A stretch of DNA of 64,000 bases from Chloroflexota bacterium (GCA_027593235.1 JAQCIU010000009.1:44239-108238), one strand, 5' to 3'. Positions 1-53,943 are shown, counted from the stretch's first letter. The notes: generated by a model from the letters alone, not told the origin. A program made the numbers and translations.

Positions 1-408
1 CTAGCCGCGTGGCTGGCTGCGCGGACCAAACGGCTCCGGACGGAACGGATCGTCCCGTGCCTTCAGGAACGCCCCGAACCCACCCTCGGCCTGCGCCTTG
101 TCCAGGTGCTCCGTGTCGGGACCGTCGTTCTCCGCCTCGACGATCGCGGAGATCACGCCGTTCATGTTAAGCGCGGAACGCAGCCCCATCGCCTCGAGAC
201 CGTAGGTGGTGATCGCCTTGTTCAGCCGCACCGACTCCGCCGGCACCTTCGCCAGCCGCAGCGCCAGCTCGCGCGCGCGCTCCATCAAATGATCGTGCGG
301 CACCACCTCGTTGATCGCACCGATCCGCAGCGCCTCGGCCGCGTCGAAGTGATCGCCGGTCAGCGCGTAGCGGTGCGCGTTCTTCCAGCCGCAGAGAATC
401 GCGAACAG
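1..408 (-). pseudogene. enoyl-CoA hydratase/isomerase, C-terminal half only (5' part missing)
   Basis: LFAILCGWKNAHRYALTGDHFDAAEALRIGAINEVVP...RLNKA is a crotonase C-terminal segment; stop at 1-3. The Pro-rich N-terminus of ORF 1..522 is the antisense of the neighbouring gene. Confidence 0.75.
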
Positions 409-409
409 C

Positions 410-7722: not shown

Positions 7723-7905
7723 CGCCGGATGATACGAGGCGCCGTCGGACCCGCGTGGGGCCACCCACCCCGCGGCGCTGTATCGATCCGGTCATCACTC
7801 TCGATATTACAAAGCGTATAGTGCGACTCAGGTGAGTCTCAGGCTGCGGCGCTGCTCGCAAGAACGCGAAACGAGCAGCCGCCGGTCGCACATCAGGGGG
7901 TCTTT

Positions 7906-38318: not shown

Positions 38319-38326
38319 CCCCGAAC

Positions 38327-38839
38327 TCAGGCGACGCGGACGAGTGCTGACTGGCTCAGCCGCCGTACCTCGTCCGTCGCCTTCGCGATCGTGAACGTCA
38401 GGTACAGCATCGACTGCACGCTGTACTCATTGATTGGCGGCTCGCCCTCGGCTGCCAGATCGCGGCCCGCCACATCCCGCAGTGTGATCCCGCGGTACAC
38501 CCCGTCCTCGCCCCGGTCCCACGAGGCGTAGACATACCGGTTCCGCCAGGACAACGCGTCCTCCGCGTCTTCCTTCACCAGCTCCGCCACGGCTTCCAGC
38601 ACCGCGTCGCGGAACTTCCGGTACGCGCCCTCTTCCGCCAACCGCCGCACCTCAAGCACCAGCGGCCGCGCCGTCAGACCATGCAGCCGCCCTGGCGGCC
38701 CCGCCAGGTTGCGCACGCCCGTAAACGCGAGCGCCAGCAGCGCTCGCTCCAGGCGCGCGGACTCAATAACCAGGCGCCCGATCTGCTCGGCAACCTGGCT
38801 CAGCGCGGGATCCATCGGGCGCGTTTTCCAGTCGTCCAT
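38327..38839 (-). CDS. hypothetical protein
   Basis: 170-aa helical ORF; IG.L.I..A.LE...RN..(Y)A.W loosely resembles HEPN-like proteins. Confidence 0.55.
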   Translation of the reverse strand: MDDWKTRPMDPALSQVAEQIGRLVIESARLERALLALAFTGVRNLAGPPGRLHGLTARPLVLEVRRLAEEGAYRKFRDAVLEAVAELVKEDAEDALSWRNRYVYASWDRGEDGVYRGITLRDVAGRDLAAEGEPPINEYSVQSMLYLTFTIAKATDEVRRLSQSALVRVA

Positions 38840-38920
38840 GCAACGACTATCGACGTGATTTGGCGCCCCGCGAGCGGCCCAGCCTGCCGATCGTCCCCGC
38901 TCTTTCGATACCCTCGAGGT

Positions 38921-39221
38921 ATGTCCAGCGACAGAGAGCCCCGGATCGGCGCGGTCGCGCTCGGCGTCGTCGTTCAGGACGGCCACCTGCTCCTCGAGCC
39001 GATGGCGAAGTGGCTCAACGTCGGCCTCGTCTGGCGCCCGATCGGCGGCTATATCAACTTCGGCGAGCGCGCCGCCGAAGCCGTCGTCCGCGAATTCCGC
39101 GAAGAACTCGCGCGCGACGTCGAGGTCATCCGCCTCATCGAGGTCTACGAGAACCTCGTCACCTTCCCCCTCTCCAGCGGCCCGCTCGAGGTCCACGAAA
39201 CGTCGTTCATCCACGAACTGC
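38921..39221 (+). pseudogene. NUDIX hydrolase, 5' part (IS30-interrupted)
   Basis: Nudix box GGYINFGE...AVVREFREEL; stops at IS end. Confidence 0.85.
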
Positions 39222-40446
39222 TGCGGACTCAAGCGGTCAACGCAACAGCCTCGGCGAACTTCTCTGATGGTGTGTGGAAGCCGAGCGTCTGTCGAGGACG
39301 TCCGTTCAGCTCATCGGCAACCGCATCGAGCTGCTCCTGCGTGACATTCGCGAGGCTGGTGCCCTTCGGGAAGTACTGACGGAGCAGCCCGTTGGTGTTC
39401 TCGTTCGAGCCCCGCTGACAGGGACTGCTCGGATCGCAGACGTAGATCTGCAGCCCGGTGTCGAGCGTGAACCTGGCGTGCTGCGCCATCTCCTTGCCCT
39501 GATCCCAGGTCAGCGAGCGCACTAGCTGTTCCGGGATCGTCGCGATCCGGTCCTTCAGCGCGTCGAACACCGCCTCGGAAGTGCGCCCGTTCGGCAGCCG
39601 TACCAGCACCGCGAAACGAGTGCTGCGCTCGACCAGCGTCGCGATTGCTGAGTTCCCTTTCCCGAGCAGCAAGTCGCCCTCCCAGTGACCGGGTACCGCC
39701 CGGTCCTCGGCTTCGGCCGGACGCTCGCTGATGTGCACCGCGTCGCGCAGCTGGCCCTGCCCGTTCACCGCGTGCGGCGTCCGCGGACTGCGCACCTTCC
39801 GCCGCGAGCGCAGGTACTGCGTGAGCTGCTTGCGCAGCGTGCCGCGGGGCTGGATGAACATCGAGAGGTAGATCGTCTCGTGCGACACGCGGAACTCCCG
39901 GTCGCGGCAGGCGTGGGCCAGCCAGCCAGCGATCTGCTGCGGCGACCAGCGTAATTGCAGCAACGCTTCGACCGCGTGCCGCAGCTGAGGGAAGCTCCCG
40001 AGCTTGGTCGCCTTCGGTCTGCGCGCGCGCTTGAACGCGGTCCGCTCGGCCTCGCAGGCGCGGTATTGGCCACGCCCGCCGTTGCGGGCCACCTCGCGGG
40101 AGACCGTCGATGGAGCCCGCCTCAACCGTCTGGCGATCTGCCGGCAGGAGTCGCCGGCGACCAGTCCCCGCGAGATCTCTTCACGCTCAGCCGGCGAGAG
40201 TCGTAGCTCGGACCGCCGCAACTCCCGCGGCTGTCGTCCGCCGGTCGAGGCGATCAGCCGTCGCAGCATTCCCATGTCGCGTCTCACGCCGCGACTGATC
40301 GATCGCAGCGACTCCCCGACACCGTACCGCCGCCAGATCTCCGTCTGCTCTCGTTGGCTCAGCCCACCACGTCTCATCGGTCACCCTCCTCGTCACGAAC
40401 ATCCTGTTCGTTCGACGAGGTGGTGCGTTGATCAGTTGAGACCACC
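39222..40446 (-). mobile_element. IS30 family insertion sequence
   Basis: 26-bp imperfect terminal IRs (39222-39247 and 40421-40446, 19/26 match); 2-bp GC target duplication (39220-21 and 40447-48). Confidence 0.9.
39229..40377 (-). CDS. IS30 family transposase
   Basis: HTH STVSREVARN, WSPQQI, SHETIY, GHWEGD, TWDQGKE, QRGSNENTNGLLRQYFPKG. Confidence 0.96.
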   Translation of the reverse strand: MRRGGLSQREQTEIWRRYGVGESLRSISRGVRRDMGMLRRLIASTGGRQPRELRRSELRLSPAEREEISRGLVAGDSCRQIARRLRRAPSTVSREVARNGGRGQYRACEAERTAFKRARRPKATKLGSFPQLRHAVEALLQLRWSPQQIAGWLAHACRDREFRVSHETIYLSMFIQPRGTLRKQLTQYLRSRRKVRSPRTPHAVNGQGQLRDAVHISERPAEAEDRAVPGHWEGDLLLGKGNSAIATLVERSTRFAVLVRLPNGRTSEAVFDALKDRIATIPEQLVRSLTWDQGKEMAQHARFTLDTGLQIYVCDPSSPCQRGSNENTNGLLRQYFPKGTSLANVTQEQLDAVADELNGRPRQTLGFHTPSEKFAEAVALTA

Positions 40447-40448
40447 GC

Positions 40449-40627
40449 GCTTCGTACCATCCAATCGCCCCACCGACCTCGAACCACTCCCCTCGTTCGA
40501 ACAAGACGCCGCACCGGGCAACGCCCACTCGTTCGCTCACTGGCTCCCAATCGACGAACTACGCGCGGGCGTGCACCCCGTCTTCCCACCGTCACTCGTC
40601 ACCATGCTCACGCCGCTGTTCGGGTAA
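40449..40627 (+). pseudogene. NUDIX hydrolase, 3' part
   Basis: Removing the IS and one GC copy gives in-frame HEL-RFVP...AHWLPIDEL...PVFPP.L; 159 aa reconstructed. Confidence 0.8.
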
Positions 40628-40682
40628 CCGCGTCCTGTCGCTACTATCAGCGCACACAGCGCGCGAACTCCGAGGCGGCACA

Positions 40683-41651
40683 GTGAACATCTTGATCATG
40701 ACCAGCGTCACGATGATGGACGTCGATGACGCCATCCTTGATCGCGTCCGCGATGCCGCCGGCCACGACGCCGAAATCGCCGTCACCACCAGCCCCGGCG
40801 AAGCCCTCGAGGCCGCCGCCGACGCCGAGGTCATCTTCGGGCGTATCGACGAGCAGCTCTTCCAGCACGCCACCAAGCTCCGCTGGGTCCACGCCAGCAC
40901 CGCCGGCGCGGACGCCTACCTCTTCCCCGCCTTCAAGGAGAGCGACGTCCTGCTCTCCGGCGACAAAGGCCTCGTCGGCAGCCACCTCGCCGAAACCGCC
41001 TTCGGCCTCCTCCTCGCCCTCACCCGGCGCATCGATCACGCCCTCCTCGCCGGCCCGGCCTCCTGGGATCACCGCGTCGACTACCGCCGTCAGGAGTTCG
41101 AACTCGAAGGCCTCACCATGGGCATCGTTGGCTTCGGCGGCACCGGTCGCCACATCGCGAAGCGCGCCGCCGCCTTCGGCATGCACTGCATCGCCGTCGA
41201 CCGCGATCCCGTCCCACCCACCGCCGAGGTACCCACCGTCTGGGGATCGGATCGCCTCGATGAGCTGCTCGCCACCTCTGATGTCGTCGCCTCCGGCCTG
41301 CCGCTGACCGAGGACACCCGTGACCTCTTCGACGCTCGCGCCTTCGCCCTCATGAAACCCACCTCCATCCTCGTCAACGTCACCCGCGGCGAAGTCGTCG
41401 ATGGCATGGCCCTCGTTCAGGCGATCGAAGACGGCCAGATCTACGGCGCCGCGCTGGACGTCGCCCCCCAGGAACCACTCCCCGCCGCCCACCCGTTGTG
41501 GACCACGAAGAACGTCGTCATGACCCCGCACACCGCCGGTGCCAGCCAGCTCCGCGTCGGCCGTAACCTCGATCGCTTCTGTCGAAACCTCACCCGATTC
41601 CGCGCCGGTGAACCGTTGGAAGGCGCCATCGACAAAGAACTTGGATACTAG
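40683..41651 (+). CDS. D-2-hydroxyacid dehydrogenase
   Basis: GFGGTG, LVNVTRG, ALDV..EPLP, TPHTAG. Confidence 0.93.
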   Translation: MNILIMTSVTMMDVDDAILDRVRDAAGHDAEIAVTTSPGEALEAAADAEVIFGRIDEQLFQHATKLRWVHASTAGADAYLFPAFKESDVLLSGDKGLVGSHLAETAFGLLLALTRRIDHALLAGPASWDHRVDYRRQEFELEGLTMGIVGFGGTGRHIAKRAAAFGMHCIAVDRDPVPPTAEVPTVWGSDRLDELLATSDVVASGLPLTEDTRDLFDARAFALMKPTSILVNVTRGEVVDGMALVQAIEDGQIYGAALDVAPQEPLPAAHPLWTTKNVVMTPHTAGASQLRVGRNLDRFCRNLTRFRAGEPLEGAIDKELGY

Positions 41652-41681
41652 GAGCGGACATCGACGCCTTGAGGAGCCTCC

Positions 41682-41870
41682 ATGAGCAATGAATCCCCCA
41701 TCACCATCAGCGCCTTCGACGAGCGTTGGTGGGCCGGCATGCTCGCCCGCCGCCGTATCGCCCACCAGCTCGAAGAGGGTGAAAGCGGCGACTGCAGCTA
41801 CCCGGACTGCGCGTGGCACGGCGTCACCCCCGGCGAGGCCAATGCACCATCGCCCGCATCGCCACCCTGA
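41682..41870 (+). CDS. small His/Cys motif protein, paralog A (homology continues past TGA to TAG 41946-48)
   Basis: RBS GAGGAG; 20/40 ungapped identity with 50522..50833. Confidence 0.7.
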   Translation: MSNESPITISAFDERWWAGMLARRRIAHQLEEGESGDCSYPDCAWHGVTPGEANAPSPASPP

Positions 41871-42009
41871 CGCTCGACCTCTGCGAGTCATCTCGCGGCG
41901 CTCCAGGTTGGAGACGCCACCCCCTTCATCCCCGAGGACTACACATAGGGGCCACCCGGCCCCGCTGAACCGCCCGCTGCTCCCCGACCCTTCCCCCACG
42001 AGGTGACCC

Positions 42010-42561
42010 ATGGCTCGGCTGCCGAACCTGCTCAACCGCGCCGAGGTCCCCGCCGAACTGGTCGACGCGTACGACCGCGTCGCCGCGCTGCGCAACGGCG
42101 CGGTCTCCGGCCCCTACGGCATCCTGCTGCACAGCCCGGAACTGGCCGAGCGCGTCGCCGCCCTCGGTGAGTTCGTCCGCTGGAACTCCGCCCTCACCCC
42201 CGTGCAGAGCGAAACCGCCATCATCACCGCCGCCCGCTACTGGAACGCCGACCTGATGTGGGGCGCCCACGTTCGCATCGGCCGCGAAGCCGGTATCCGC
42301 GAAGAAGTGATCGCCGCCGTCGGCACCCGCGCCGCCCTCGACGGACTCGCCCCGGGCGAAGCCGCGATCGTCCAGTACGTCCGCGAACTGCTCGAAACGC
42401 ACCGCGTGCAATCCGCGACCTTCGAGGCCCTGCGCGACGCCGTCGGCGAGCGCGGTGTCGTCGATCTGACCGGCCTCGTCGGCTACTACGCGGTCGTCGG
42501 CTTCACCCTCAACGGCTTCGAGGTCGAGCCACCGGCTGGTTCGGAACCCCTGCCGGCATAG
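42010..42561 (+). CDS. carboxymuconolactone decarboxylase family protein
   Basis: GPY..LLHSPELA, E.AII..AR, W.AH, DLTGLVGYY; paralog of 23694. Confidence 0.88.
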   Translation: MARLPNLLNRAEVPAELVDAYDRVAALRNGAVSGPYGILLHSPELAERVAALGEFVRWNSALTPVQSETAIITAARYWNADLMWGAHVRIGREAGIREEVIAAVGTRAALDGLAPGEAAIVQYVRELLETHRVQSATFEALRDAVGERGVVDLTGLVGYYAVVGFTLNGFEVEPPAGSEPLPA

Positions 42562-42623
42562 CCGATCGCTCCGCGGTACGCCGCCGGCCGGCGACCGCAC
42601 GTTCCGCAGCGAGAGGACGCCCG

Positions 42624-43703
42624 ATGGCCGACTTCCCGACCGTGCTCGACGAGATCACGCCTGCCTTCTTGAGCGAAGTCCTCGGCAGTGATGTCTCCGC
42701 CGTCACCGGGTCGCTGGTCGCCGCGCAGGGCGCCGTCTCGACCGCCGCGCGCCTCCAGCTCACCTACGCGCCCGGCGCCGCCGGCCCGCCCGCCGTCTTC
42801 GCCAAGTGGTCCGCACCCATCGAGGCCGTTCGTCGCATGGCCGCCCAGAACGGCATGTATCGACGCGAAATCCGCTTCTACAAAGACCTCGCCGCCACCT
42901 CGGACATCCAGACCCCGCACTGCCACTTCGCCGGCTGGGACCGCACCACCGACGAGTTCCTGCTGATCCTGGAGGACATGAGCGCCAGCCGTGTCGGCAA
43001 CTTCTACGCATCCGCGCTCGCTGACGTCACCGCCGTCGTCGTGGCGCTGCCGCCATTCCACGCCCGCTGGTGGAACCATCCAGACCTCGCAAAGCTGCGC
43101 TGGCTCTTCCCGCTCGACCATCCCGCGGCGTCGGGCGGCCTCCAGGCTGCGTTCACCGCATCGCTCGATCGCACACGCACGCGCTTCCCCGACCAGTTCG
43201 ACGGCGCACTCGGCGCCGTCTCCGCCGCAATCGTCGACCGATATCCCGCGATCGCCGGTCGCTTCGCCGCGCGCCCCGTCACCCTCACCCACGCCGATCT
43301 CCACCTTCAGCAGGTGTTCTTCCCCGGCGCCGAAGGCGGTCACTTCGCCGTCTTCGACTGGCAGACGATCGGACGCGGCTTCGGCGGTCAGGATCTCGCC
43401 CGCATCATCGCGATGAGCCTCACCACCGACGCCCGCCGCGAGCACGAACGCGCGCTCGTTGCCCGCTACCACCAGGGCCTGCTCGCCGCTGGGGTCCGCG
43501 AATACGATCTCGCCGCCTGCTGGGACGACTACCGGCTCGGCATGATCTGGAGCGCGCTCCTCAACGTCGTCGCCGGTGCCTCGATCGATCGTGCCGCCAT
43601 GGACGCTGACGCCGCCGCGTACGGAACCACGCTCGGCGCGACCTTCTTCGGTCGCATCGACGCCGCGCTCGCCGATCTCGATGTGGTCGCGCTGCTGCCC
43701 TAG
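42624..43703 (+). CDS. phosphotransferase (APH/ecdysteroid-kinase-like)
   Basis: REIRFY, LILED, HADLH, FDWQ, DLA. Confidence 0.85.
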   Translation: MADFPTVLDEITPAFLSEVLGSDVSAVTGSLVAAQGAVSTAARLQLTYAPGAAGPPAVFAKWSAPIEAVRRMAAQNGMYRREIRFYKDLAATSDIQTPHCHFAGWDRTTDEFLLILEDMSASRVGNFYASALADVTAVVVALPPFHARWWNHPDLAKLRWLFPLDHPAASGGLQAAFTASLDRTRTRFPDQFDGALGAVSAAIVDRYPAIAGRFAARPVTLTHADLHLQQVFFPGAEGGHFAVFDWQTIGRGFGGQDLARIIAMSLTTDARREHERALVARYHQGLLAAGVREYDLAACWDDYRLGMIWSALLNVVAGASIDRAAMDADAAAYGTTLGATFFGRIDAALADLDVVALLP

Positions 43704-43746
43704 CGCATGCGTCGCCCCGTGATCCTCCGCGCCGTATCATCACGCG

Positions 43747-43977
43747 ATGGTCGACCGTCGCGGCAGACTCGAATCCGATCCGTTCGCCTTTACCGTCACC
43801 CGCGATCAGCTCGTACGCATCTCCCGCGCGGGCAAACACGTCACCACACTCGGTGCGAACGCCTCGGCGCGGTTCCTCGCCGCCGTCGAAGACACTGAAG
43901 AGCCGGCGCGCCAACAGTTGATGGCGCGCGCGACCGGCAACTACAAGCGCGGAAACGAGCGTCGAGGGCGTCCGTAG
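43747..43977 (+). CDS. small hypothetical protein
   Basis: Q.LMAR.TGNYKRGNER C-terminal motif; TATCAT-6nt-ATG. Confidence 0.7.
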   Translation: MVDRRGRLESDPFAFTVTRDQLVRISRAGKHVTTLGANASARFLAAVEDTEEPARQQLMARATGNYKRGNERRGRP

Positions 43978-44025
43978 CACGCACGATCAGCGCACCTGAA
44001 CTACCCGCGCGATGACGGTATCGGA

Positions 44026-44958
44026 TCAGGCCTCGGGTGCGATGCCCCGTGCCTCGATCTGTGCGCGAACCGCCTGGCCGATCCGTGACGGATCCAGCTC
44101 CTGGATCCGTGGTCCGTCGTCCCGCCGGTACGGCGCGTAGGGGTCAGCGTCGAAGAAGTCAGAGTCGTAACTGGCCACCCACCAGACGTTGAACGCGATG
44201 CTCGCCGTCATGATCGCCGCGCTCGCCACCGCAAGCCACCAGTACCGCGGCCCGACCACCAGCGGTTCCGGCCGCCGATTGGGGAGTTGCTCCTGCAACG
44301 GCTCCGCTCGAACCACGACGGTCCCGGCCAGCTTGTCGTGCCATGTCTGATTGCGATCGTCCCAGAGCGCCCACAGGAACCCCAGGCCAAAGAACAGGAC
44401 GCTGAACGTCCGCATCGAGTAGCGGATCAATCCGTGCACCACCCCCGGACGTCGCCCGTCCAGCCGCACGACCCGGATGCTGCTCGCGGCTTTCCCCGGC
44501 GACCAGCCGAAGGAGTCAAGACTCCACTGCACCAGCAGCATCAGCATCGTGATCACCGCGGTCGCCACCGCAAACCCACGTCCGGATCCAACCTCCGCGG
44601 CGTTCTCACCGTCGGGACCCGCCGACGCCACCAGGCCGACGATCAGTACGATCATCACCACGTAGATCGCTGCGATCAGCGTGACCCAATCGAGGACCAG
44701 CGCCCCCAGCCGCTTCCCGAACCCGGCCAACGGGAGCTGCACACCGCCAACGTCGGCGAACTTCGTGCCGTACGGGTAGGTCCGAACCCCGCTGCTCGCT
44801 GGGATGGCGCCGCCTGACACGACCTGCGTCGCCGGCGTTGCACCGCTCACCGCGTAGCCGCAGCGCGCGCAGAACCGCGCATCCACGGGAAGTTCCCCGC
44901 CGCATTTCAGACAGAAATACCAGGAGCGCGCTGATGTCATCGTCTGTATGGTCGACAC
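44026..44958 (-). CDS. zinc-ribbon plus RDD family protein
   Basis: CLKC/CARC, KRLGALVLD, SPGK, QTWHDKLAGTVV; start could be 44940. Confidence 0.85.
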   Translation of the reverse strand: MSTIQTMTSARSWYFCLKCGGELPVDARFCARCGYAVSGATPATQVVSGGAIPASSGVRTYPYGTKFADVGGVQLPLAGFGKRLGALVLDWVTLIAAIYVVMIVLIVGLVASAGPDGENAAEVGSGRGFAVATAVITMLMLLVQWSLDSFGWSPGKAASSIRVVRLDGRRPGVVHGLIRYSMRTFSVLFFGLGFLWALWDDRNQTWHDKLAGTVVVRAEPLQEQLPNRRPEPLVVGPRYWWLAVASAAIMTASIAFNVWWVASYDSDFFDADPYAPYRRDDGPRIQELDPSRIGQAVRAQIEARGIAPEA

Positions 44959-45009
44959 TCTGACCAGATTCTTTCATCCGCGCAATCGGAACCGGGCTGG
45001 GACTGACGT

Positions 45010-45678
45010 ATGGACTTCGCCGGCCTACAGTTACTCGGCTTCGCATTCGTGATCCTTGGCGGCCTCACTGGGCTGATCTGGGGCCTCACCACCAGCGGTT
45101 CGCACTTCCCGACAGCACACCTCGATCAGCAGTTCGGCATCACCACCGCCACACCGGCACGGCGCCTCACCGCCAGCGTGCTGGAGGTGGCACTGTTCGT
45201 CTGCACCTTCGCTATTGGCTGGGTGATCTGGTTCCTGATCGTCGCGCCACGTGGTCAGACCCCGGCCAAGGTGCTGCTATCGACCTACGTGATGCGCGAG
45301 GATGGCAGCCGTGCCGGCGGCTGGTACATGTGGGGCCGCGAGGCCTTGGTGAAGTGGCTGCTCTTCTCATTCCTGAACACCTTCACCTTTGGCGTCGCTT
45401 CCACCCTCGCCGCGCTCTGGTGTCTCTGGGATGACGACAAGCAGTGCGGCTGGGACAAGGTGATGTCCTCGTACGTCGCCTACTCTCCACACGACCCACC
45501 GTCCCGCCGCACGGATATCGCGGCGGATCCCGGTCCCGGCGCCACCGCTGGCCCGCCCACCATCGCGGAAACGCGCCCATCCGATCGGCTACGCGAACTA
45601 CAGCAACTGCGCGCCGACGGCATCATCACCGCCGAAGAGTACGAGGAACGTCGGCAGCGCCTGATCGATCAGCCGTAG
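45010..45678 (+). CDS. RDD family protein with C-terminal SHOCT domain
   Basis: RRLTA, GQTPAK, Q.GWDK; LRELQQLRADGIITAEEYE. Confidence 0.85.
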   Translation: MDFAGLQLLGFAFVILGGLTGLIWGLTTSGSHFPTAHLDQQFGITTATPARRLTASVLEVALFVCTFAIGWVIWFLIVAPRGQTPAKVLLSTYVMREDGSRAGGWYMWGREALVKWLLFSFLNTFTFGVASTLAALWCLWDDDKQCGWDKVMSSYVAYSPHDPPSRRTDIAADPGPGATAGPPTIAETRPSDRLRELQQLRADGIITAEEYEERRQRLIDQP

Positions 45679-45767
45679 TCGCCACACGCGGGTTGCGACC
45701 TCTGGCGGGCGCAGAGCGGCGCGCGGCGTGGTGCGGGTGGTACCGGCGCGGCAGGACGCCGCGCCCC

Positions 45768-46964
45768 TCAGTTGGCCGCCGCTGGCACACCGTCAGCCAG
45801 CGCCTGCTCCACGCCCCGCGCGGCCCGCTCGATGTCGTCCTCGTTGTTGAACACGTGCAGCGACAATCGCGTCGCATCCCGCTCCCGCACCACCCGGCAG
45901 ACCACGTGGTGCTCCGACTGGAGCCAGGGCCCAAGGTCGGCGGCCGGCACCCCCGCCGTGGTGAAACAGAACAACCCCGTGCGCGCTTCCTCCGTGCGTG
46001 GGCTGTCGATCGCCACGCCCTCGATCCCGCTGAAACGCGCCTCCGCGAATCGGCTCAGCTCACGCACGCGATCGAACACAGCCTGCGGCCCGGAGACCAG
46101 GTAGCTCTCCACCGCCTGCACAGCGCCCGCCACCAGCACCGGCGGCACCGCCGCCAGCTCGTACTTCCCGGGGACATCCCCCTTCGGCGCGAAGCCGCCC
46201 TGATGATCCCACTGCTCCGCGTAGCTCACGTCGACGATCGATGGCGTGACCCGCGGCAGCGCCTCCGCGCTCACGTAGAGCGCGCCGATCCCGCGCGGCC
46301 CGCCCAGCCACTTCTGCGCCGGGATCGCGTATGCGTCCACGCCCAGCGCGTGCACGTCGATCGGGATGTGACCGCCCGTCTGCGCGCCGTCGATCACCAC
46401 CAGCGCCCCAACACGGTGCGCCGCCTCCGTGATCGTCCGCACCGGCAGCAACTGCCCCGTCGCGTACGCCACCTCGGAGATCATCACCACCGACGTCCGC
46501 TCGTTGATCGCCGAGGCAAAGCGCTCGAGGATCGCGCCGTGCGAATCGTCCGGTGCCACCGCGACGAAATCCACCTCGATCTGGCTCAACTGACCCGCGT
46601 GGTAGAGCGGCACGACGCCCGATCCATGCTCCAGTGAGCTCGTCACGATCCGGTCGCCGGCGCTCAATGCCAGCCCCGCCAGCACCGTGCTCACACCCAC
46701 GCCGGTGCTCGCCGTGATCGCCACCTCCTGTGGCTCGGCGCCCAGCACCTGCGCGAAACCGGCGCGCAACCGCTCACGCTCCTCGCGTGCCTTGTCCATC
46801 GCGACCCGCGTCGTCGTCCCGTGCTCCAACTCGAAGTCGAGCTGCGCCCGGATCGCGTCCGTCATCGCCCGCGACGGCGGCGGCGCGAAGCCGGTGTTCA
46901 GATACGTGTAATGCTCCAGCGCCGGGATATCCGCCCGCAACGCAGCCCAGCGCTCAGCCGTCAT
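45768..46964 (-). CDS. aminotransferase class V PLP enzyme (cysteine lyase/epimerase-like)
   Basis: YLNTG, EH.S, IDGAQTGGH, QKWLGGP, RLSLH.FN. Confidence 0.9.
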   Translation of the reverse strand: MTAERWAALRADIPALEHYTYLNTGFAPPPSRAMTDAIRAQLDFELEHGTTTRVAMDKAREERERLRAGFAQVLGAEPQEVAITASTGVGVSTVLAGLALSAGDRIVTSSLEHGSGVVPLYHAGQLSQIEVDFVAVAPDDSHGAILERFASAINERTSVVMISEVAYATGQLLPVRTITEAAHRVGALVVIDGAQTGGHIPIDVHALGVDAYAIPAQKWLGGPRGIGALYVSAEALPRVTPSIVDVSYAEQWDHQGGFAPKGDVPGKYELAAVPPVLVAGAVQAVESYLVSGPQAVFDRVRELSRFAEARFSGIEGVAIDSPRTEEARTGLFCFTTAGVPAADLGPWLQSEHHVVCRVVRERDATRLSLHVFNNEDDIERAARGVEQALADGVPAAAN

Positions 46965-47001
46965 CGCATCCCCTCACCCACTCGCTGGCTCGAGCCTCGC
47001 G

Positions 47002-47931
47002 CTACGCGTTCGCCGGCTTCTCGTCCTCGGCGCCCTTGCCCGTCGCCAGTGGCCGGTCGTGCGGTGCCGAGGCGTACGCGCCGCGGAAGTCGCGGAACGG
47101 CCCGTCGCGCCATTCGAGCGCTGCCTTCAGCCCCTGCTCCCGCGAAATCCGGCCAAACTCACCCGCCGCCGGGCGGTGCTTGCTCATCGCCTCGACATCC
47201 GTCCCGGACATCAGCCCGGTGCGGATCCCCATGATCTCGTACTGCCGGTTCACCGCCCGCTTGTTGTAGGCCAGCAGGTCGTTGTCGATGTGACCCAGCC
47301 GCTCCGCGAACCGCTCCGTGAACTCCTCGAGCTGGTCGCCGGGCACCGCGTAGGTCGCCCAGCCCATCCACTCCATGTCTTTCCCGGAGAACGCGTCGCC
47401 CGTGTACGCGAACAACCGCGCCTTCGCCGGCGGCAGGAACCACGGCGCCCACATCATGTCCATCGTCCCCATCGCCCGCACCGGCGGGTACCCCACCTGC
47501 GCGTCCTCGGCCACGATCCGGAAGTCGCAGATCGAAGCCAGCTCCGTACCGCCCGCCAGGCAGTAGCCGTGGATCTGCGCGATCACCGGCTTCGACAACT
47601 CCCAGATCATCCAGTTCGCCAGGATCGTGTGGCGTGACCAGTCGTAGTGGTTCGGGTGCGTCGAGCCCGTGTCCGGCATCAGCGAATGCGGCTCCACGTA
47701 CTTGCTCGGCTGCGGGTTCGGAGTCAGGTCGTAACCCGCGCTGAACGCCCGTCCCGCCGCCTTCAGGATGATCACGCCCACCTCGCGGTTGGCCTCCGCC
47801 TCCCGCATCGCGTGAAACACCTCGGCCCGCAACTCGTGCGAAAGCGCGTTCAGCTTCTCCGGTCGATCGAGCGTGATCCGGGCGATCCGGCCCTCGGTCT
47901 CGTATTGAATGAAGTCATAGTCGGGCGCCAT
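47002..47931 (-). CDS. enoyl-CoA hydratase/isomerase family
   Basis: LDRPEKLNAL, AFSAGYDL, KPVIAQIHGYCLAGG.E. Confidence 0.92.
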   Translation of the reverse strand: MAPDYDFIQYETEGRIARITLDRPEKLNALSHELRAEVFHAMREAEANREVGVIILKAAGRAFSAGYDLTPNPQPSKYVEPHSLMPDTGSTHPNHYDWSRHTILANWMIWELSKPVIAQIHGYCLAGGTELASICDFRIVAEDAQVGYPPVRAMGTMDMMWAPWFLPPAKARLFAYTGDAFSGKDMEWMGWATYAVPGDQLEEFTERFAERLGHIDNDLLAYNKRAVNRQYEIMGIRTGLMSGTDVEAMSKHRPAAGEFGRISREQGLKAALEWRDGPFRDFRGAYASAPHDRPLATGKGAEDEKPANA

Positions 47932-48116
47932 CGTCTGTCCTCTCGCGCGAACCATCTCGCTGCGGCGCCAGCATAGCCCCCCGCGCTGGTTCGCGCGGAG
48001 CGCGGTCCCGCAGTGGCTCGGCACCCGCAGTCCAACCGCTGCGGCAACCCGATTCTCGCTCGCCACGGGTCATCTGGGTGCTAGATTCCCCGCAGACAGA
48101 GCGATCGGAGCAACAC

Positions 48117-49289
48117 ATGGGCTGGTCAACGACACAACGCTTCGGGCTCACCCACCATCGGCCCCAGCTCAGCTACAAGGGCTACACCCTCGTCATCCCG
48201 CTCTCCGGCGACTCCGTCTTCCTGATTGACATGGACGGACGCTTCGTCCACCGCTGGCTGTTCAAGGGCTTCTCGCCGATGAAGGCGGAGCTGCTGGAAG
48301 ACGGCCACCTCCTCGTCATGGGCATCGAACACGCCCTCCGCCCCACCACCCCACCGCCAGAGGTCGGCGCACCCGCCGAGCCCTTCGAGACGCGGATCCG
48401 CCGCCTCGGTGCCAACTGCTCGCTCCTCCTCGAGGTCGGCTGGGACGGCGTCGAGCTCTGGCGCCACGCCGATATCGCCATGCACCACGACTTCAAGCGC
48501 CTCCCCAACGGCAACACCGTCTTCCCCGTCTGGGTCGAAATCCCCGAGGACCTCACCCGCCAGGTCAAGGGCGGCACCAAACTCCCGAAGGAGAAGCTCC
48601 CCGCCAGCCTCCTCGGCGACGACATAGTCGAGATCGATGCTGCCGGCAAGGAGCTCCGGCGAATCGAAACCTGGCGACACTACGACCCCCGCAAGGACCC
48701 GATCTGCCCGCTCGAAGGCCGCATCGAATGGACGCACGTCAATGCCGTCGACGTGAACGCCGAGGGCGAAACGGTCATCTCCTGCCGCAACAACAGCCGT
48801 GTCTCCGTCTTCTCACCGACTGGCGAGCTGACCTGGAACTACGGCGCGCCCGACACCGCGCACCAGCACCACGCCACCTTTGTCGCTGACGGCCGCGTCC
48901 TGATCTTCGACAACGGCGCACACCGCGTCCGCGGCGGCCCCACCTCGAAAGTCATCGAGGTGGACCGCGCAACCAACGAGGTCGTCTGGAGCTACCAGGG
49001 CACGCCCGCCGAGCAGTTCTTCAGCGGCCACATCTCCGGCGCCACCCGCCTCCCCAACCACAACACCCTGGTCTGCGAAGGCACCTCCGGCCGCCTCTTC
49101 GAGGTCACCCGCGCTGGCGAGGTCGTCTGGGAATGGTGGAACCCTGTCTACAACCCGCGGCCCAACGGCGAATCGATGGGCTGGCTCTTCCGCGCCTACC
49201 GCTACGCCCCCGACTACTCCGGCCTCGCTGGCCGCGATCTCGACCCCGCCCGCCTTGCCGACCTCAACCGCCTCTACCAGCTCCCCTGA
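48117..49289 (+). CDS. aryl-sulfate sulfotransferase (ASST) family protein
   Basis: HHDF, WTHVN, ISCRN, HQH, IFDNG, RLPNHNTL. Confidence 0.85.
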   Translation: MGWSTTQRFGLTHHRPQLSYKGYTLVIPLSGDSVFLIDMDGRFVHRWLFKGFSPMKAELLEDGHLLVMGIEHALRPTTPPPEVGAPAEPFETRIRRLGANCSLLLEVGWDGVELWRHADIAMHHDFKRLPNGNTVFPVWVEIPEDLTRQVKGGTKLPKEKLPASLLGDDIVEIDAAGKELRRIETWRHYDPRKDPICPLEGRIEWTHVNAVDVNAEGETVISCRNNSRVSVFSPTGELTWNYGAPDTAHQHHATFVADGRVLIFDNGAHRVRGGPTSKVIEVDRATNEVVWSYQGTPAEQFFSGHISGATRLPNHNTLVCEGTSGRLFEVTRAGEVVWEWWNPVYNPRPNGESMGWLFRAYRYAPDYSGLAGRDLDPARLADLNRLYQLP

Positions 49290-49293
49290 CCCA

Positions 49294-49363
49294 CGAGGAC
49301 CCGGCAACCCCCGAGGACCCGGCGGCCTCCGAGGATCGACCCGCGTCCCCAACGCACGAGGAC
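49294..49363. repeat. degenerate ~18-bp tandem repeat (CGAGGAC core, 4 copies)
   Basis: Cores at 49294, 49312, 49330, 49357. Confidence 0.55.
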
Positions 49364-49422
49364 GGCGCAACTGCCGCGCCGTCCTCGCTGGACACCAGCC
49401 GCCGGCCATCCGGCCGCGCGAG

Positions 49423-49926
49423 CTAGCGAACCGTCAGCTCGTGGATGAAGAACCCGCGCTCCTCGTCCGCCGTCTGCGCGCTGTAGTCGATCCACACCTC
49501 CGAGGGGTAACCGGCCCCCGCGTACACCGTCCGGATCTCGGCCGCGTCCTGATCGATCGCGTCCTGGATCAGCGCAAACAACCCCGTCACCGTCTGATAC
49601 TCCGCGAGCCGATCCGCCGGCAGCACCGCGCCGTCCTCCGTCGCGCCCGCCTCGATCGCCCCGTCCCGCACCTCGAGGTCAACGCGCACCACGTACTCGA
49701 CGATGCAGAAGCACTGCCAGTTGAACGTCATGTCGTAGTTGTCGGCCCCGTGCAACGCCCACAGCGCGCGCGCCACATCGAGGGCTGCCTGCGGGTCCGT
49801 CAGGCTATTCGGATCGGCCATCTCCGTCGGCGTCGCCGACGGCTCATCCGCCTTCGCGGTCGCGCTGCACCCCACCGCGATCGCCGTTAGCACCACCAGC
49901 GAAACCAAGAGCAACCTGCGCATCAT
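49423..49926 (-). CDS. lipoprotein, DUF6174-like
   Basis: Lipobox AVGC; W...G..NY, CFC, TV.GLF..IQ, GYP, DEE. Confidence 0.75.
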   Translation of the reverse strand: MMRRLLLVSLVVLTAIAVGCSATAKADEPSATPTEMADPNSLTDPQAALDVARALWALHGADNYDMTFNWQCFCIVEYVVRVDLEVRDGAIEAGATEDGAVLPADRLAEYQTVTGLFALIQDAIDQDAAEIRTVYAGAGYPSEVWIDYSAQTADEERGFFIHELTVR

Positions 49927-49995
49927 CGCCTCCCTCACCCGCTGCCTGAACAACGAGCGACGAGGCCAATCGGTTCCCCGAGGTCGCGCCGTGCG

Positions 49996-50478
49996 CTAGC
50001 GAGCGCGCGCCGTCCGCAGCGTCGCCGCAACAAACGCCGCCTTCTGGTTGCTGTACTCCTCGCGATCGAACCGGAACCGCTGCTGCAGCGCCCGCTTCAA
50101 CGCCGCGTACCCGGCCCGCGCCTCCGCGCTCCGCCGCAGCTCGTCCCGAAAATCGAGGTGGTCCTGCCACTGCCCCTCGCCCGGAACATAGGCATGCACG
50201 TGCACGTCTTCGCGATTGAAGTATTGGCGTCGCGGGATTCCGAACTCGCCTCGTGCCTCAAACCCGAGGCCGCTCATCGCCTCGACGATCGCGTACCCCG
50301 CCTCGAACGACCGCAGCCCCGGCATCAAATCGATGATCGGCTTCGCCAGCAGGCCCGGTACGGCCGTGCTGCCAACGTGCTCGACCACCACCACCGCGTC
50401 CCCGCACGCCTCGAGGATCCGCGCCGACCAGCTCGCCGCCAGCTCGCGCCACGCCGGATCGTGCGGCGCCAGGATCAC
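49996..50478 (-). CDS. GrpB family protein
   Basis: HDPAW, EHVGSTAVPGL.AKPIID, HVH, FRD.LR, Y.ALK; start uncertain (up to 50547). Confidence 0.88.
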   Translation of the reverse strand: MILAPHDPAWRELAASWSARILEACGDAVVVVEHVGSTAVPGLLAKPIIDLMPGLRSFEAGYAIVEAMSGLGFEARGEFGIPRRQYFNREDVHVHAYVPGEGQWQDHLDFRDELRRSAEARAGYAALKRALQQRFRFDREEYSNQKAAFVAATLRTARAR

Positions 50479-50521
50479 CTCATCGGCACGGTGCGGGGGC
50501 GCCCCGCCCGAGGCCGCATCC

Positions 50522-50833
50522 TCAGAACGTGTACTCGAACTCCTCATCGTCCTCGTCGTCTCCCTCGATCACGTCGCGCTCGTACACGAAGCGCCCGCCC
50601 ATCGCGGCGATCCCGAGCCCGTCGAGGTGGCTCAACGCGACACTCCGCAGTACCGGTACCGGGTACGAGGCCAACAGGTTGTCCTCGCCGGGACGCTGAC
50701 CGTGCCACGCGCACTCTGGCCAACTGCAATCTTCCATGTCCTCGCCCGGGTGCTGGTGCTTCGCCATCCGGTTGCCCAGGTGCCACTGCCACCAGCGAAT
50801 CTCGCCGCCATCCCGATCCATCGCCTCGTTCAT
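50522..50833 (-). CDS. small His/Cys motif protein, paralog B, with acidic tail
   Basis: RBS GGGGAGGT; RWW...HQ...DCSWPECAWHG..PGEDN; ends EGDDEDDEEFEYTF. Confidence 0.75.
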   Translation of the reverse strand: MNEAMDRDGGEIRWWQWHLGNRMAKHQHPGEDMEDCSWPECAWHGQRPGEDNLLASYPVPVLRSVALSHLDGLGIAAMGGRFVYERDVIEGDDEDDEEFEYTF

Positions 50834-50943
50834 CCCATCGACCTCCCCGTCGAGCCAAGTGCCACGCAATCCCACGGCGCCCATCGTCGCACCGCGCGCC
50901 CGCGCCGACGACCGCGCGACGCCCCACTCTCGAGGTACCCCGC

Positions 50944-51591
50944 CTACAGCACCTCGCGCAGCAGCTCCGTCAGCGTCCGGTGCGTCGGCGCTCCCGTTGC
51001 CACCAGCCGCTCCCGAGGTGCGTGCCCATCCTCCACCAGCACGCAGTCGATCCCCATCGCCGTCGCCACCTCGAAGTCGTGCTCCGTGTCCCCCACCAGC
51101 AACACCCGCTCCCGAGGCGTCTCGATCTTCCCGAGGTGCGCCAGCCCGTGATCCAGCTTCGAGGCCGCGTGGTGATCGTCGATCCCCACCAGCGCGCTCA
51201 TCCGCCGCCCGATCTCGAAGTGCGCCGTCACGGTGTTCAACATCCCCTGCTCCGAGGCCGACAGCATCGACTGCGTCACCCCGCGGCGGTGCAGCGCCTC
51301 CGTCGAGGCGTGCGCATCCTCCCGCAGCCGGTGCTCGCGCCACCGCGCGTCATACTCCGCGATGAACTCCACCGAGAGCGCCTCGAACGGCTCCCGATCC
51401 AGATCGAACCCCACGCGCTCGTAGTAGCCGCGCACCGGGAAGCCGAAGACCTCCTGGTACCGCACGCGATCGATCCCGGGCAGCGCACGCCGCCCCAGCA
51501 TCAGGTTCGCCACCTCGACCACCAGGTCGACGTCGTCGAACAGCGTGCCGTTCCAGTCCCAGATCACATGGTCGTAGCGCACGTCAGCCAA
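50944..51591 (-). CDS. HAD family hydrolase
   Basis: WDWNGTLFDD, LSAS, K, VGDT.HD. Confidence 0.92.
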   Translation of the reverse strand: MADVRYDHVIWDWNGTLFDDVDLVVEVANLMLGRRALPGIDRVRYQEVFGFPVRGYYERVGFDLDREPFEALSVEFIAEYDARWREHRLREDAHASTEALHRRGVTQSMLSASEQGMLNTVTAHFEIGRRMSALVGIDDHHAASKLDHGLAHLGKIETPRERVLLVGDTEHDFEVATAMGIDCVLVEDGHAPRERLVATGAPTHRTLTELLREVL

Positions 51592-51630
51592 TCCCCTCGC
51601 ACGCCACGACCTGCCTGCGCCAACCGCCCG

Positions 51631-51957
51631 CTATTTCAGCGGCGAGAAGTCCGTCGGCGCCATGATCCGGTTCTCGATGTGCGCCACCAGCGCGCCGTTC
51701 CGCTCGGACTCCTCGCGCGCCGTCTGCCACGCCGGATCCGATCCGAATGCCCGCCACGCCGCATCCCGCTGTGCCATGTCCTCGAACGCCAGCATGTACC
51801 ACAGCTCGTCGCTGCGGCCGCCGATCGTGTTGCGCCAGTAGCCAACGTTCTTCAGCCCGTGCTTCTCGAACAATGCGCACGTGTGGTCCCGGAACCGCGC
51901 GATCAAATCCGGAAGCTTCCCCGGAGCGGCACGGTAAATCCGAAGCTCGTAGATCAT
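51631..51957 (-). CDS. NIPSNAP family protein
   Basis: YELRIY.A.PGK, F.KHG, W.AF.SDP.W, PTDFSP. Confidence 0.92.
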   Translation of the reverse strand: MIYELRIYRAAPGKLPDLIARFRDHTCALFEKHGLKNVGYWRNTIGGRSDELWYMLAFEDMAQRDAAWRAFGSDPAWQTAREESERNGALVAHIENRIMAPTDFSPLK

Positions 51958-52197
51958 CTGTTTGTTCCTCCCACCGCCACGTTGGCGGCAACGCTCGGCA
52001 TGCTACACAGCCAGCAGCCACGCCACCGCTGCGCTCTCCAACCGGCCGAGGACTCACGCACCACACCATCGATGTCGCCGCGCGGAATCAGCGCGAGATC
52101 GTCAGTGGCGACCACCGCGCGAATCCTATCCCACGGCTCACCGTCGCCTTGATATTCTGCCCTCCGTGCCGGTCCCGATCAGCCCACGGAGGTACCC

Positions 52198-52707
52198 ATG
52201 CGCGAAACTCCCGAGGATCTCCAGCGCCTGCAAACGATCCTCGACCAGTCGCACGCGCGCGGCGGCGCGCACCTGCGTTCGATCATCACCGAGGAACGCC
52301 GCCTCTCCGCACAACAGATCGTCGATCGACTCCCCGCCATGAGCCTGCTCACCCTCGCCACCACCACCCGCGATGGCGCGCCGATTGCCGGCGCCGTCGA
52401 TGGCATCCTCTATCGCGGTGAATTCTGGTTCGGCTCCGCCCCGCACTCGCTCCGCTTCCGGCACATCCGCGAACGCCCCCGCGTCAGCGCCACCCACCTG
52501 CCCGGCGAACACCTCGGCGTCACCGTCCACGGCACCGCCCACATCGAAGGTGTCCCGGCGGCCCTCCCGGATGAGTTCCAGGCCGTCTGTGTTGAGATCT
52601 ACGGCGAAGCCTGGCACGAGTGGGGTGACGAGGCGATCTACGCTCGCCTCGAGCCGCAACGCATGTTCGTCTTTCACATGGACCCGGACGCCGCGACGGC
52701 CCCCTGA
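52198..52707 (+). CDS. pyridoxamine 5'-phosphate oxidase-like (split beta-barrel) protein
   Basis: RBS GGAGG; LATTTRDG.P, R.RHI..RP.VS, V.VHG.A. Confidence 0.85.
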   Translation: MRETPEDLQRLQTILDQSHARGGAHLRSIITEERRLSAQQIVDRLPAMSLLTLATTTRDGAPIAGAVDGILYRGEFWFGSAPHSLRFRHIRERPRVSATHLPGEHLGVTVHGTAHIEGVPAALPDEFQAVCVEIYGEAWHEWGDEAIYARLEPQRMFVFHMDPDAATAP

Positions 52708-52738
52708 CCGGTCAACCAGACCCGGTCCCGGCAGATCG

Positions 52739-53410
52739 CTACCCGCGCTGTGCGACGGCGTAGTGCCGGCCGCTGCGGTCGCGCGACTCCTCCACCACTA
52801 GCTCGTTCGCGCGCAGCACATACGCCATCGCCTGCGCGGTCCGCCGGCTCGTCGGCGCGGCCACCGCCAGATCCGCCGTCGTCCAGCTCGCCGCCAGCGT
52901 CGCCGGCAACAGCTCCAACAGCTCGCTGACCGCCTCGAAGCGTCGCGTCCCGCGCACCTGTCGCAACCGCCGGTCCATCACACGGCGCTCGCCACGGCGC
53001 CCCGGCTCACGGAGCTGCTCCTCGTCGATCAGCAGCACCTCAAGCACCAGGTTCGGATGGTCCAGCAACGTCGGCAGGCTCGTCAGCTCCGCGAACAAAT
53101 CCAGGATTGATCCACGTCGCGGCGAACGCCGCGGTCGCTTCCCCGTTCCCGTGATCCACGTCTCGATCGCGATCGGATGCACGATCCGGATCTGGTGATC
53201 GCCCAGCAGCCGATCCAGCTTCTTGCCCAGCGCGCCGAACGACCCCGTCTGGATCTCGATCAGCTCATCGCCGTCCGCCGTCGGCCGCACGATGTCGACC
53301 ACGAAGCCGCTCAGCGGCACCTCGAAGCGGTCGCCCGGCTGCGCCAGCAGCTCCTTGATCGCCGCATGCAACGAACCTTCGTTGAGCGTCCCAATCTCCG
53401 AGGGCGTCAC
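52739..53410 (-). CDS. hypothetical protein, PD-(D/E)xK-like N-domain plus C-terminal wHTH-like segment
   Basis: GTLNEGSLHAAIK, FEV....VVDI, LIEIQT; GTG overlaps the ArsR TGA (GTGA). Confidence 0.7.
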   Translation of the reverse strand: MTPSEIGTLNEGSLHAAIKELLAQPGDRFEVPLSGFVVDIVRPTADGDELIEIQTGSFGALGKKLDRLLGDHQIRIVHPIAIETWITGTGKRPRRSPRRGSILDLFAELTSLPTLLDHPNLVLEVLLIDEEQLREPGRRGERRVMDRRLRQVRGTRRFEAVSELLELLPATLAASWTTADLAVAAPTSRRTAQAMAYVLRANELVVEESRDRSGRHYAVAQRG

Positions 53411-53817
53411 GCCTTCGGCCGGCTCCCCGCGTCCCCTGTACTGCTCTCGGCGTCCCCGCCATCCACAACCGGCTGCGGGCCAAGCATCCGGCCGAGCGTG
53501 GAGACCGCCCAGGGATCCACGCGGTAGTAGACGTTCGAGGCGTGACGCTTGCTGGTCACCAGCCCCGCCTCGCGCAGCACCTTCAGGTGGTGGCTCACCG
53601 TCGGCTGCGACAGCTCCAGCCCGTCCACCAACTCGTGCACGCAGGCGTCGCCGTTCCGCGCCGAAATCATCGAGAGCAGTCGTACCCGCGTCGGATCGGA
53701 AAGCGCCCGAAACGCCTCGGTCACGCACGCCAGTTCGCCCGCTCTCAGTTCGCCCGCAAGCAGCGGATCGGAACCCGTCAGCGCGCTCAGCGGCGATCCC
53801 TGCGTCGGTTCATTCAT
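53407..53817 (-). CDS. ArsR/SmtB family transcriptional regulator
   Basis: FRALSDPTR, CVHEL, LSQPTVSHHLKVLREAGLV, VYY. Confidence 0.93.
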   Translation of the reverse strand: MNEPTQGSPLSALTGSDPLLAGELRAGELACVTEAFRALSDPTRVRLLSMISARNGDACVHELVDGLELSQPTVSHHLKVLREAGLVTSKRHASNVYYRVDPWAVSTLGRMLGPQPVVDGGDAESSTGDAGSRPKA

Positions 53818-53851
53818 ATCGACGTTGCTCGATATTGACGTTCATCGATGT
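53816..53851. promoter_or_regulatory. putative ArsR operator: two overlapping palindromes
   Basis: ATATCGA-N6-TCGATAT (53816-35) and ATATTGA-N6-TCGATGT (53832-51), overlapping the ArsR start. Confidence 0.7.
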
Positions 53852-53943
53852 CAGCGCGATGATGCTCCGACTGCCCACCCGCGTCAACACCTGCGTTCAG
53901 CTCGGGCGCCGCGTGATCAGCCACGCGCTCGCCGGAGGGGCCA

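Follow-up and report, generated by a model that had tools for sequence, protein, structure and literature searches.

A small Cys/His/Trp protein family of Dehalococcoidia and a candidate selenocysteine codon in one of its two paralogs

Introduction

The question raised by the locus described here is whether the TGA codon at which a small gene appears to end is in fact the end of its protein. The locus lies in a stretch of 64,000 nucleotides from a Chloroflexota bacterium (GCA_027593235.1 JAQCIU010000009.1:44239-108238), referred to below as the window, by which we mean this whole stretch of DNA at its full length. An earlier note, made from the sequence alone, had pointed out two small unannotated paralogs in it that share a 40-residue block: gene A, whose open reading frame (ORF) up to its TGA occupies 41682-41870 (+) and encodes 62 amino acids (aa), and gene B, which runs from an ATG at 50833 to a TGA at 50522 (-) and encodes 103 aa. 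We reproduced this alignment by BLASTP, in which A residues 15-54 and B residues 13-52 pair without gaps at 20 of 40 identities (pairwise E = 1e-12); a six-frame motif scan of the 64 kb window gave no third copy of the motif. The end at 41870 is the part of that description that now appears to need revision, since the TGA, the frame behind it, an extension resembling B and a hairpin resembling a selenocysteine insertion sequence (SECIS) are all conserved among related genomes. With a probability of roughly 0.6, we propose that gene A encodes a selenoprotein of ~88 residues in which this TGA is recoded as selenocysteine (Sec), that B is its paralog without selenocysteine, and that the two belong to one small cytoplasmic family.

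Results

A scan of 185,579 species genomes yielded five family loci (L001-L005) in four assemblies, all titled Dehalococcoidia bacterium metagenome-assembled genomes (MAGs), and the proteins flanking A and B in the window share 54-95% identity with their counterparts in these loci, which marks the window as DNA from a relative of these organisms. DNA of gene A was obtained from three loci (the window, L005 and L003) and DNA of gene B from five (the window, L001, L002, L003 and L004). At the protein level, the A-type set comprised 10 sequences, namely eight database clusters (the window's own included) and the translations of L003 and L005, while the B-type set comprised 22.

All 10 A-type sequences terminate at ..PP, from which it follows that gene callers met a stop there each time, and the database entries found for A-type genes all end at 61-65 residues. 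The next codon, codon 63, is the in-frame TGA (41868..41870, +) regarded here as the candidate selenocysteine codon, and it occupies this position in the window and likewise in L005 and L003. Alignment of the A DNA of these three loci revealed that the stretch right after the stop codon is more conserved than the ORF itself. In the window, the frame remains open from the TGA for 25 codons, encoding the extension RSTSASHLAALQVGDATPFIPEDYT (41871..41945, +), and ends at a TAG (41946..41948, +) which we propose as the true stop of A; it is open for 24 codons in L005 (TAG) and for 25 in L003 (TAA), so that the three ends fall within one codon of each other. The peptide conserved behind the TGA in the three loci can be written as U-RS[TN][SA]ASHLA[AV]LQVGDA[TS]PF.., and in the window version of gene A the peptide after Arg64 reads STSASHLAALQVGDATPFIPEDYT. 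As the extension holds no start codon conserved across the three loci, it would be translatable only by decoding the TGA.

The substitution pattern within the extension resembles that of a coding sequence in A's own frame. Against L003, the changes at codon positions 1, 2 and 3 amount to [3,3,9] and [3,5,11], with five codons changed only synonymously, and the resulting third-position excess is supported by binomial p values of 0.03 and 0.024, the two comparisons sharing a branch and therefore not being independent. The ratio of nonsynonymous to synonymous differences per site (pN/pS) relative to L003 is 0.22 and 0.30 in A's frame, compared with 1.5-4.9 in the other two frames. In addition, the extension shows homology to B over B's C-terminal half: when the read-through form of A was compared with B by BLASTP, the aligned columns increased from 40 to 63, with 28 identities, and E fell from 1e-12 to 1e-15. 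A profile built from the region after the shared motif in the 22 B-type proteins was run on 3,216 stop-to-stop peptides from the window and the five loci, and placed the five B genes at the top, with the three post-TGA peptides at ranks 6, 8 and 9 (E = 0.006, 0.034 and 0.038), each of which aligned from its first residue to the RSVAxxHL...F segment of B. Three residues encoded downstream of the TGA, S65, H70 and L71, are invariant in the joint alignment of 27 A and B sequences. Taken together, these comparisons provide moderate evidence (p ~0.03, E 0.006-0.04, three sequences) that coding conservation continues past the TGA of A, and suggest that the protein probably extends beyond position 41870.

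Two adjacent hairpins are predicted behind the TGA. P1 (41883..41896, +) begins 12 nt past the TGA, consists of a 5-bp stem with the loop UCAU, encodes A-S-H-L-A, has a folding energy of -6.3 kcal/mol and is identical in all three A loci. P2 (41897..41918, +) is SECIS-like, with 4 bp, a bulged A, a 5-bp upper stem and the apical loop GGU 35 nt past the TGA; folded alone it reaches -13 kcal/mol (z = -3.9), with a range of -8.2 to -13 kcal/mol across the three loci, and the two-hairpin fold is the minimum-energy structure in each of them. Over the 36 nt of the hairpins the genomes differ at one or two positions, and two C>U transitions in P2 retain pairing as G-U. Third-position changes affect 1 of 12 hairpin codons versus 40 of the 62 upstream codons (1-62; Fisher p = 7e-4), and these near-frozen third positions point to an RNA or DNA constraint added to that on the protein. 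According to the accessible text of PMC13188914, the bacterial SECIS consensus demands a loop of 3-9 nt whose first two positions contain G, an upper stem of 4 bp or more, a UGA-loop distance of 16-37 nt and an energy of <= -7.5 kcal/mol; in our own implementation of the rules given there, P2 satisfies all four constraints in all three loci. A search of Rfam returned nothing at E <= 1 in 38000-54000 and two chance matches (E 7.7 and 8.8) in 41840-42015, and no terminator-like T run was found behind A. The spacer from the hairpins to the next gene, which starts at 42010 (41919-42009, +), is C-rich and G-poor, its first third being conserved (..CCCTT..) and the remainder not.

That A and B are genes at all is supported by their homologs and by the selection acting on them. 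Searches with B identified 15 homologs among 18 candidates (91-117 residues, 55-71% identity) and searches with A two among three candidates (62 residues each, 73-74% identity), while a profile of 27 sequences retrieved 32 proteins among 8,000 scored candidates from a collection of 5.8 billion clusters. The same kind of profile search over all 1.84 billion cluster representatives, with no length limit, returned seven proteins, all of <=117 residues, which indicates that the motif is not a domain of larger proteins at HMMER sensitivity. Ortholog identity is 79% (L005) and 66% (L003) for A and 54-79% for B, comparable to that of the flanking enzymes; where synonymous sites are unsaturated, the ratio of nonsynonymous to synonymous substitution rates (dN/dS) is 0.14-0.42 (A 0.19, B 0.14-0.42), and pN/pS over codons 1-62 of A is 0.16-0.28. 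Between L003 and the window, synonymous sites are saturated (pS 0.88-0.94), yet both A and B are retained. By these measures, A and B are true paralogs under purifying selection and real genes, and the possibility that they are spurious ORFs was rejected in view of the homologs, the dN/dS of 0.14-0.42 and the conserved neighbours. The duplication is, on the evidence of gene content, old, the window, L003 and the contig of L001/L005 each carrying both paralogs, in agreement with the earlier view of selection on the motif rather than a recent duplication. L003 itself represents a large compositional shift between fairly close relatives: its G+C content is 50% versus 68-69% in the window, L001, L002 and L005, whereas shared proteins are still 59-91% identical and gene order is retained.

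Neither A nor B matched any Pfam or NCBIfam model at E <= 10, Pfam zinc-finger models included; a profile search of PDB sequences gave chance-level matches only (best E = 0.51), and a search of the ESM Atlas with B gave no usable match. The statement that no named family is recognizable therefore stands, and judged from these sequence searches the family is small, lineage-restricted and without a named domain, and belongs to marine-type Dehalococcoidia. One member, P0021, is a 78-residue variant with PWW in place of RWW that ends shortly past the HL motif and is encoded on a contig of 6.98 Mb, which may mean that the family reaches beyond the small-genome marine lineage. Another, P0024, is B-type over its first 34 residues but then continues into an unrelated tail with an AT-rich look, and is probably a chimeric or frameshifted prediction.

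Within the 27 aligned sequences, WW, L, R, C38, P41, C43, W45, H46, G47 and PG (A numbering) are invariant. The earlier description of an invariant H-x9-C-x4-C-x2-H motif holds for its C-x4-C-x2-H part but not for the first His: H28 of A, invariant in the 27-sequence alignment, is Q in P0018, which carries a His four residues later, and the x9 spacing between His and Cys is x8 in P0031 and P0032 and x10 in P0020. B-type proteins have two further conserved residues, H18 and H28 (B numbering), with the exception of P0029, which has N at position 28. The part of gene A comprising codons 1-62 (41682..41867, +) contains the PTTISxF motif, the RWW helix and C38-x4-C43-x2-H46-G, the N-terminal PTTISxF motif being conserved in, and specific to, A-type proteins. 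Gene B encodes a RWWQWHLGxRMxxHQHP...CSWPxCAWHG module, then SLPxxxPRSVAxxHL...FVYERDV and finally an acidic tail, in the earlier note's suggestion a nucleic-acid mimic or interaction module, which varies in length and is absent in P0015/L003.

Both start codons are preceded by purine-rich Shine-Dalgarno-like sequences, as expected from the strong ribosome-binding sites noted earlier: GAGGAG (41671-41676, +) lies 5 nt upstream of the ATG of A, where the DNA alignment shows AGGAG to be kept in L005 and L003 as well, and GGGGAGG (50848-50842, -) lies 8 nt upstream of the ATG of B. We could also confirm that B is hidden inside an ORF of 273 aa (50522-51343, -), the 5' part of which overlaps the HAD-hydrolase gene at 50944-51591; the B homologs (91-117 aa) start at the position matching the ATG at 50833, and the G+C content of 68.5% in the window makes long spurious ORFs frequent. 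Approximately 50 nt upstream of the start of B, a conserved non-coding motif, CGGTGnGACGATG (50882..50894, -), is present in four of the five B loci (the window, L001, L002 and L003). The ATG within CGGTGnGACGATG does not act as a start codon, given that in L001 it is not in frame and in L003 a stop comes after it; the motif may be part of B's own promoter. Promoter and terminator scans around A and B gave nothing. Across the five loci, the stop codons of the B orthologs vary (TGA, TGA, TAG, TAG and TAA), with no conservation downstream of them.

In all three A loci, gene A has a D-2-hydroxyacid dehydrogenase gene on one side and a carboxymuconolactone-decarboxylase-family (CMD) gene on the other, the latter followed by an EcKL-type kinase gene, all on one strand. 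Gene B is found downstream of NIPSNAP and HAD genes in five of five loci, with an opposite-strand hydrolase gene inserted between HAD and B in L003; a GrpB gene directly follows B in two of the five (the window and L004) and is found at a greater distance behind it in L001 and L002; the L003 stretch contains none. The two genes are convergent and sit at the two ends of one syntenic block, at a distance of ~9 kb in the window, 4.4 kb in L003 and ~15 kb on contig CBDFJZ010000006.1. The earlier note was thus correct in placing them about 9 kb apart on opposite strands, but the contexts it regarded as unrelated turned out, in the relatives, to be the convergent ends of a syntenic block. Because the genomes are closely related, this synteny establishes A and B as real and old genes without establishing a functional link between them. 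Two observations on the neighbourhood are added here. Upstream of the dehydrogenase-A-CMD group, the window carries a transposase-like gene (39229-40377, -; HTH_38 and rve integrase core domain) with no match in the related loci, and the HAD gene upstream of B in L001 (7256-7895, +) is apparently split into ORFs 7256-7528 and 7560-7895.

A screen for recoded TGA codons with loose composition filters, covering the window, L001, L002, L004 and L005 (L003 was omitted because of its different GC content), produced 20 candidates, among which only the TGA of A (window and L005) and one TGA in a solute-binding protein gene looked genuine by eye. The latter, a gene for a family-5 solute-binding lipoprotein (SBP_bac_5; window 371-2212, +), has its in-frame TGA at 716-718, with a lipobox, a Gly/Ser linker and the first conserved strand encoded upstream, and its alignment to PDB chain 8upi_A spans the TGA. 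No hairpin of <= -7.5 kcal/mol occurs within 75 nt downstream of this codon, and the gene could be a pseudogene, an assembly error or a case of read-through. Of 56 window ORFs that passed a filter on third-position G+C content and are likely genes, 33 end in TAG, 14 in TGA and 9 in TAA. TGA is usually the dominant stop codon in GC-rich bacteria, and the TAG-heavy stop use of the window looks unusual. A genome-wide reassignment of TGA was considered and rejected, given that 14 of the 56 likely genes end in TGA, several of them in 4-nt stop/start overlaps by coordinates.

Discussion

On the proposal that A encodes a selenoprotein, the UGA at codon 63 would be decoded, most likely as selenocysteine, under the direction of P2 with its GGU loop 35 nt downstream, and the product would be a protein of ~88 residues containing ..SPASPP-U-RSTSASHL... 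A and B would then be proteins of ~90-105 residues with one architecture, in which a Trp-rich helix (RWW..L..R...HQ) is followed by a Cys/His knuckle (C-[SR]-[WY]-P-x-C-x-W-H-G-xx-PG), and a Pro-rich linker leads to a second module (RS..A.HL ... F-[VI]-x-E). According to the accessible part of PMC13326102 (Table 2, based on BSepDB), two Dehalococcoidia MAGs, with 49 and 46 selenoprotein genes, are among the ten bacteria richest in such genes, which makes Sec decoding plausible in this class.

Several observations weigh against this interpretation. No homolog carries Cys at the Sec position, where B-type proteins have a gap or a variable residue (P/L/A/T/H/F), and no full-length A-type protein with Cys occurs among the 32 family members (proteins of 34-205 aa) or the seven cluster representatives, although the selenoprotein literature, including the accessible text of PMC13188914, describes nearly all selenoproteins as having Cys homologs and searches as being built on Sec/Cys pairs. 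Neither a UxxC nor a CxxU motif is present in A. The window contains none of selA, selB, selC and selD and, by a tRNA scan, no tRNA of any kind within its 64 kb. Only three A DNA sequences were usable, and the comparison of the extension between the window and L005 is uninformative ([4,4,4]). Frames that stay open for 24 codons behind a TGA also arise readily by chance, the share of TGA trinucleotides with such a frame being 29% for L003, 54% for the window and 59% for L005, and in the profile ranking an unrelated peptide took rank 7 (E = 0.023) amid the post-TGA peptides. Finally, P1 and P2 show no compensatory pairs in the three loci, all helix changes being from G-C to G-U, and the SECIS rules are unspecific in GC-rich DNA, as they are satisfied by 86 of 200 TGA trinucleotides drawn at random from the window; the weight of the hairpin evidence consequently rests on conservation, i.e. 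on the frozen synonymous sites, and not on the match to the rules.

The alternative that takes the TGA at face value holds that A ends there as a 62-residue protein and that the hairpins constitute a cis-regulatory RNA or DNA element for the CMD and kinase genes, such as an attenuator, a processing site or an operator, which might act together with slow termination after the conserved Pro-Pro. It can draw on the PP end of ten out of ten A-type sequences, on hairpins that are nearly invariant, on the C-rich, G-poor spacer of ~90 nt before the CMD start, on the same-strand order of 2-hydroxyacid dehydrogenase, A and CMD kept in three of three loci, and on the missing Cys homolog at the TGA position. 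We nevertheless hold it to be unlikely, because the third-position bias and the pN/pS of 0.22-0.30 appear only in A's frame and include codons outside the hairpins, because the extension aligns to the C-terminal half of B with S, H and L invariant, and because the downstream stop falls at the same place in three loci; the lack of a terminator-like T run and of an Rfam family likewise speaks against a regulatory element of this kind. The evidence for a translated extension would also be explained if the TGA were read through without selenocysteine, by a near-cognate tRNA aided by the UGA-C context, the Pro-Pro pair and the hairpin 12 nt downstream, giving products of 62 and 88 residues. The conserved TGA-C context in three of three loci, the lack of a Cys homolog and of a redox motif around the site, and the second, hairpin-free in-frame TGA in the SBP_bac_5 gene (716-718) would fit such read-through. 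However, programmed read-through without Sec is rare in bacteria, and 14 of the 56 likely genes in the window use TGA as their normal stop. In addition, P2 agrees with the SECIS consensus in its GGU loop and its distance from the UGA, and the lineage is reported to be selenoprotein-rich in the accessible part of PMC13326102, so that we regard this mechanism, too, as unlikely.

Two further explanations concern the nature of the genes rather than the codon. If A were a decaying, truncated copy of B, the resemblance to B of the stretch behind the TGA would be a relic, but even genomes with saturated synonymous sites (pS 0.83-0.88) have retained the TGA, the frame and the sequence, A carries its own conserved N-terminal motif, and pN/pS is low on both sides of the TGA (0.16-0.28 in codons 1-62 and 0.22-0.30 in the extension versus L003); decay is thus very improbable. 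The suggestion of the earlier note that A and B might be precursors of ribosomally synthesized and post-translationally modified peptides (RiPPs) was prompted by proteins of this type being small, rich in Cys and Trp and without a named family. This idea has become barely credible, as the immediate surroundings of A and B, at the three A loci and the five B loci of the window and L001-L005, contain no gene of the radical-SAM, YcaO, lanthipeptide, P450 or protease/transporter kind; the neighbours (dehydrogenase, CMD, kinase, HAD, GrpB and NIPSNAP) are of a housekeeping type. Moreover, conservation extends across both modules without a leader/core split, only the extreme N-terminus and the acidic tail being variable, and each genome region holds a single copy of each type.

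Returning to a selenocysteine-containing A, the Sec looks like a one-residue insertion in the Pro-rich linker. A more far-reaching and unlikely extension of this idea is that A founds a selenoprotein family in which Sec, instead of replacing a Cys, was inserted into the linker that joins the two modules shared with the Sec-free paralog, and that the gene serves as a selenium-dependent switch: with selenium, SelB would read the UGA and give an 88-residue Cys2-His2-Sec form, without it a 62-residue form ending at the Pro-Pro stop would arise, and the fate of the ribosome might set CMD and kinase expression. With respect to function, we infer from the invariant residues that C38, C43, H46 and H70, joined in A by U63, could form a soft-metal site or a thiol/selenol redox centre in a small cytoplasmic module; by inspection, neither A nor B has a signal peptide or membrane segment. 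AlphaFold2 models were poor, with a mean predicted local distance difference test score of 56.2 for B (17 sequences) and 52.0 for read-through A (27 sequences), and predicted at low confidence a helix over the RWW..HQ segment, short helices and little else.

Should A be a selenoprotein, its family would have been missed by the usual strategies, because these rely on Sec/Cys pairs. It would add to the selenoproteome of marine Dehalococcoidia, reported as selenoprotein-rich in the accessible part of PMC13326102, and would offer a natural pair of Sec and non-Sec paralogs for asking what selenium does in a tiny Cys/His/Trp protein. No such family was found described in the literature on selenoproteins of Dehalococcoidia, SAR202 and Chloroflexota, a search that did not extend to supplementary tables and BSepDB itself, which may list the family. 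We therefore present A as a candidate selenoprotein family with a Sec-free paralog that lies outside the Pfam and NCBIfam models of the families in Table 1 of PMC13188914, as far as its accessible text goes. Selenium aside, what is described here is a conserved family that contains no known domain and is taxonomically narrow, and its value is modest until a function is found.

Among known systems, leader peptides of the TnaC type, which stall at their stop codon, resemble A in being short ORFs with conserved Trp and conserved Pro before the stop, behind which a conserved RNA stretch and a C-rich spacer precede the next gene. In contrast to these, A has behind its stop a frame that looks coding and shows homology to a paralog; all of the 62-residue part is conserved in the manner of a folded domain, and B has the module without such a stop context. 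Zinc knuckles and ribbons are likewise short modules with invariant Cys, Cys and His, a further conserved His (here H70, and nearly always H28) and a preceding helix, and zinc-binding anti-sigma factors carry a H-x3-C-x2-C motif; the C-x4-C-x2-H spacing of A and B differs from both, and unlike known zinc modules the two proteins match no Pfam zinc-finger model (E <= 10) and have no confident predicted fold. Compared with the bacterial selenoproteins in the accessible text of PMC13188914, A differs in lacking Cys homologs at the Sec position and UxxC or CxxU motifs, and while the families of Table 1 there all carry a domain identifier, A and B match no Pfam or NCBIfam model, a comparison that covers these two model types and excludes cd and PTHR identifiers. 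Nonetheless, A shares with bacterial selenoprotein genes that have their SECIS inside the coding region, such as the small, computationally predicted families of that table whose function is unknown, a conserved in-frame UGA with coding conservation beyond it, a stable hairpin with a G-G/U apical loop 16-37 nt downstream, frozen synonymous sites in that hairpin, a small protein with conserved Cys and a lineage reported to be rich in selenoproteins.

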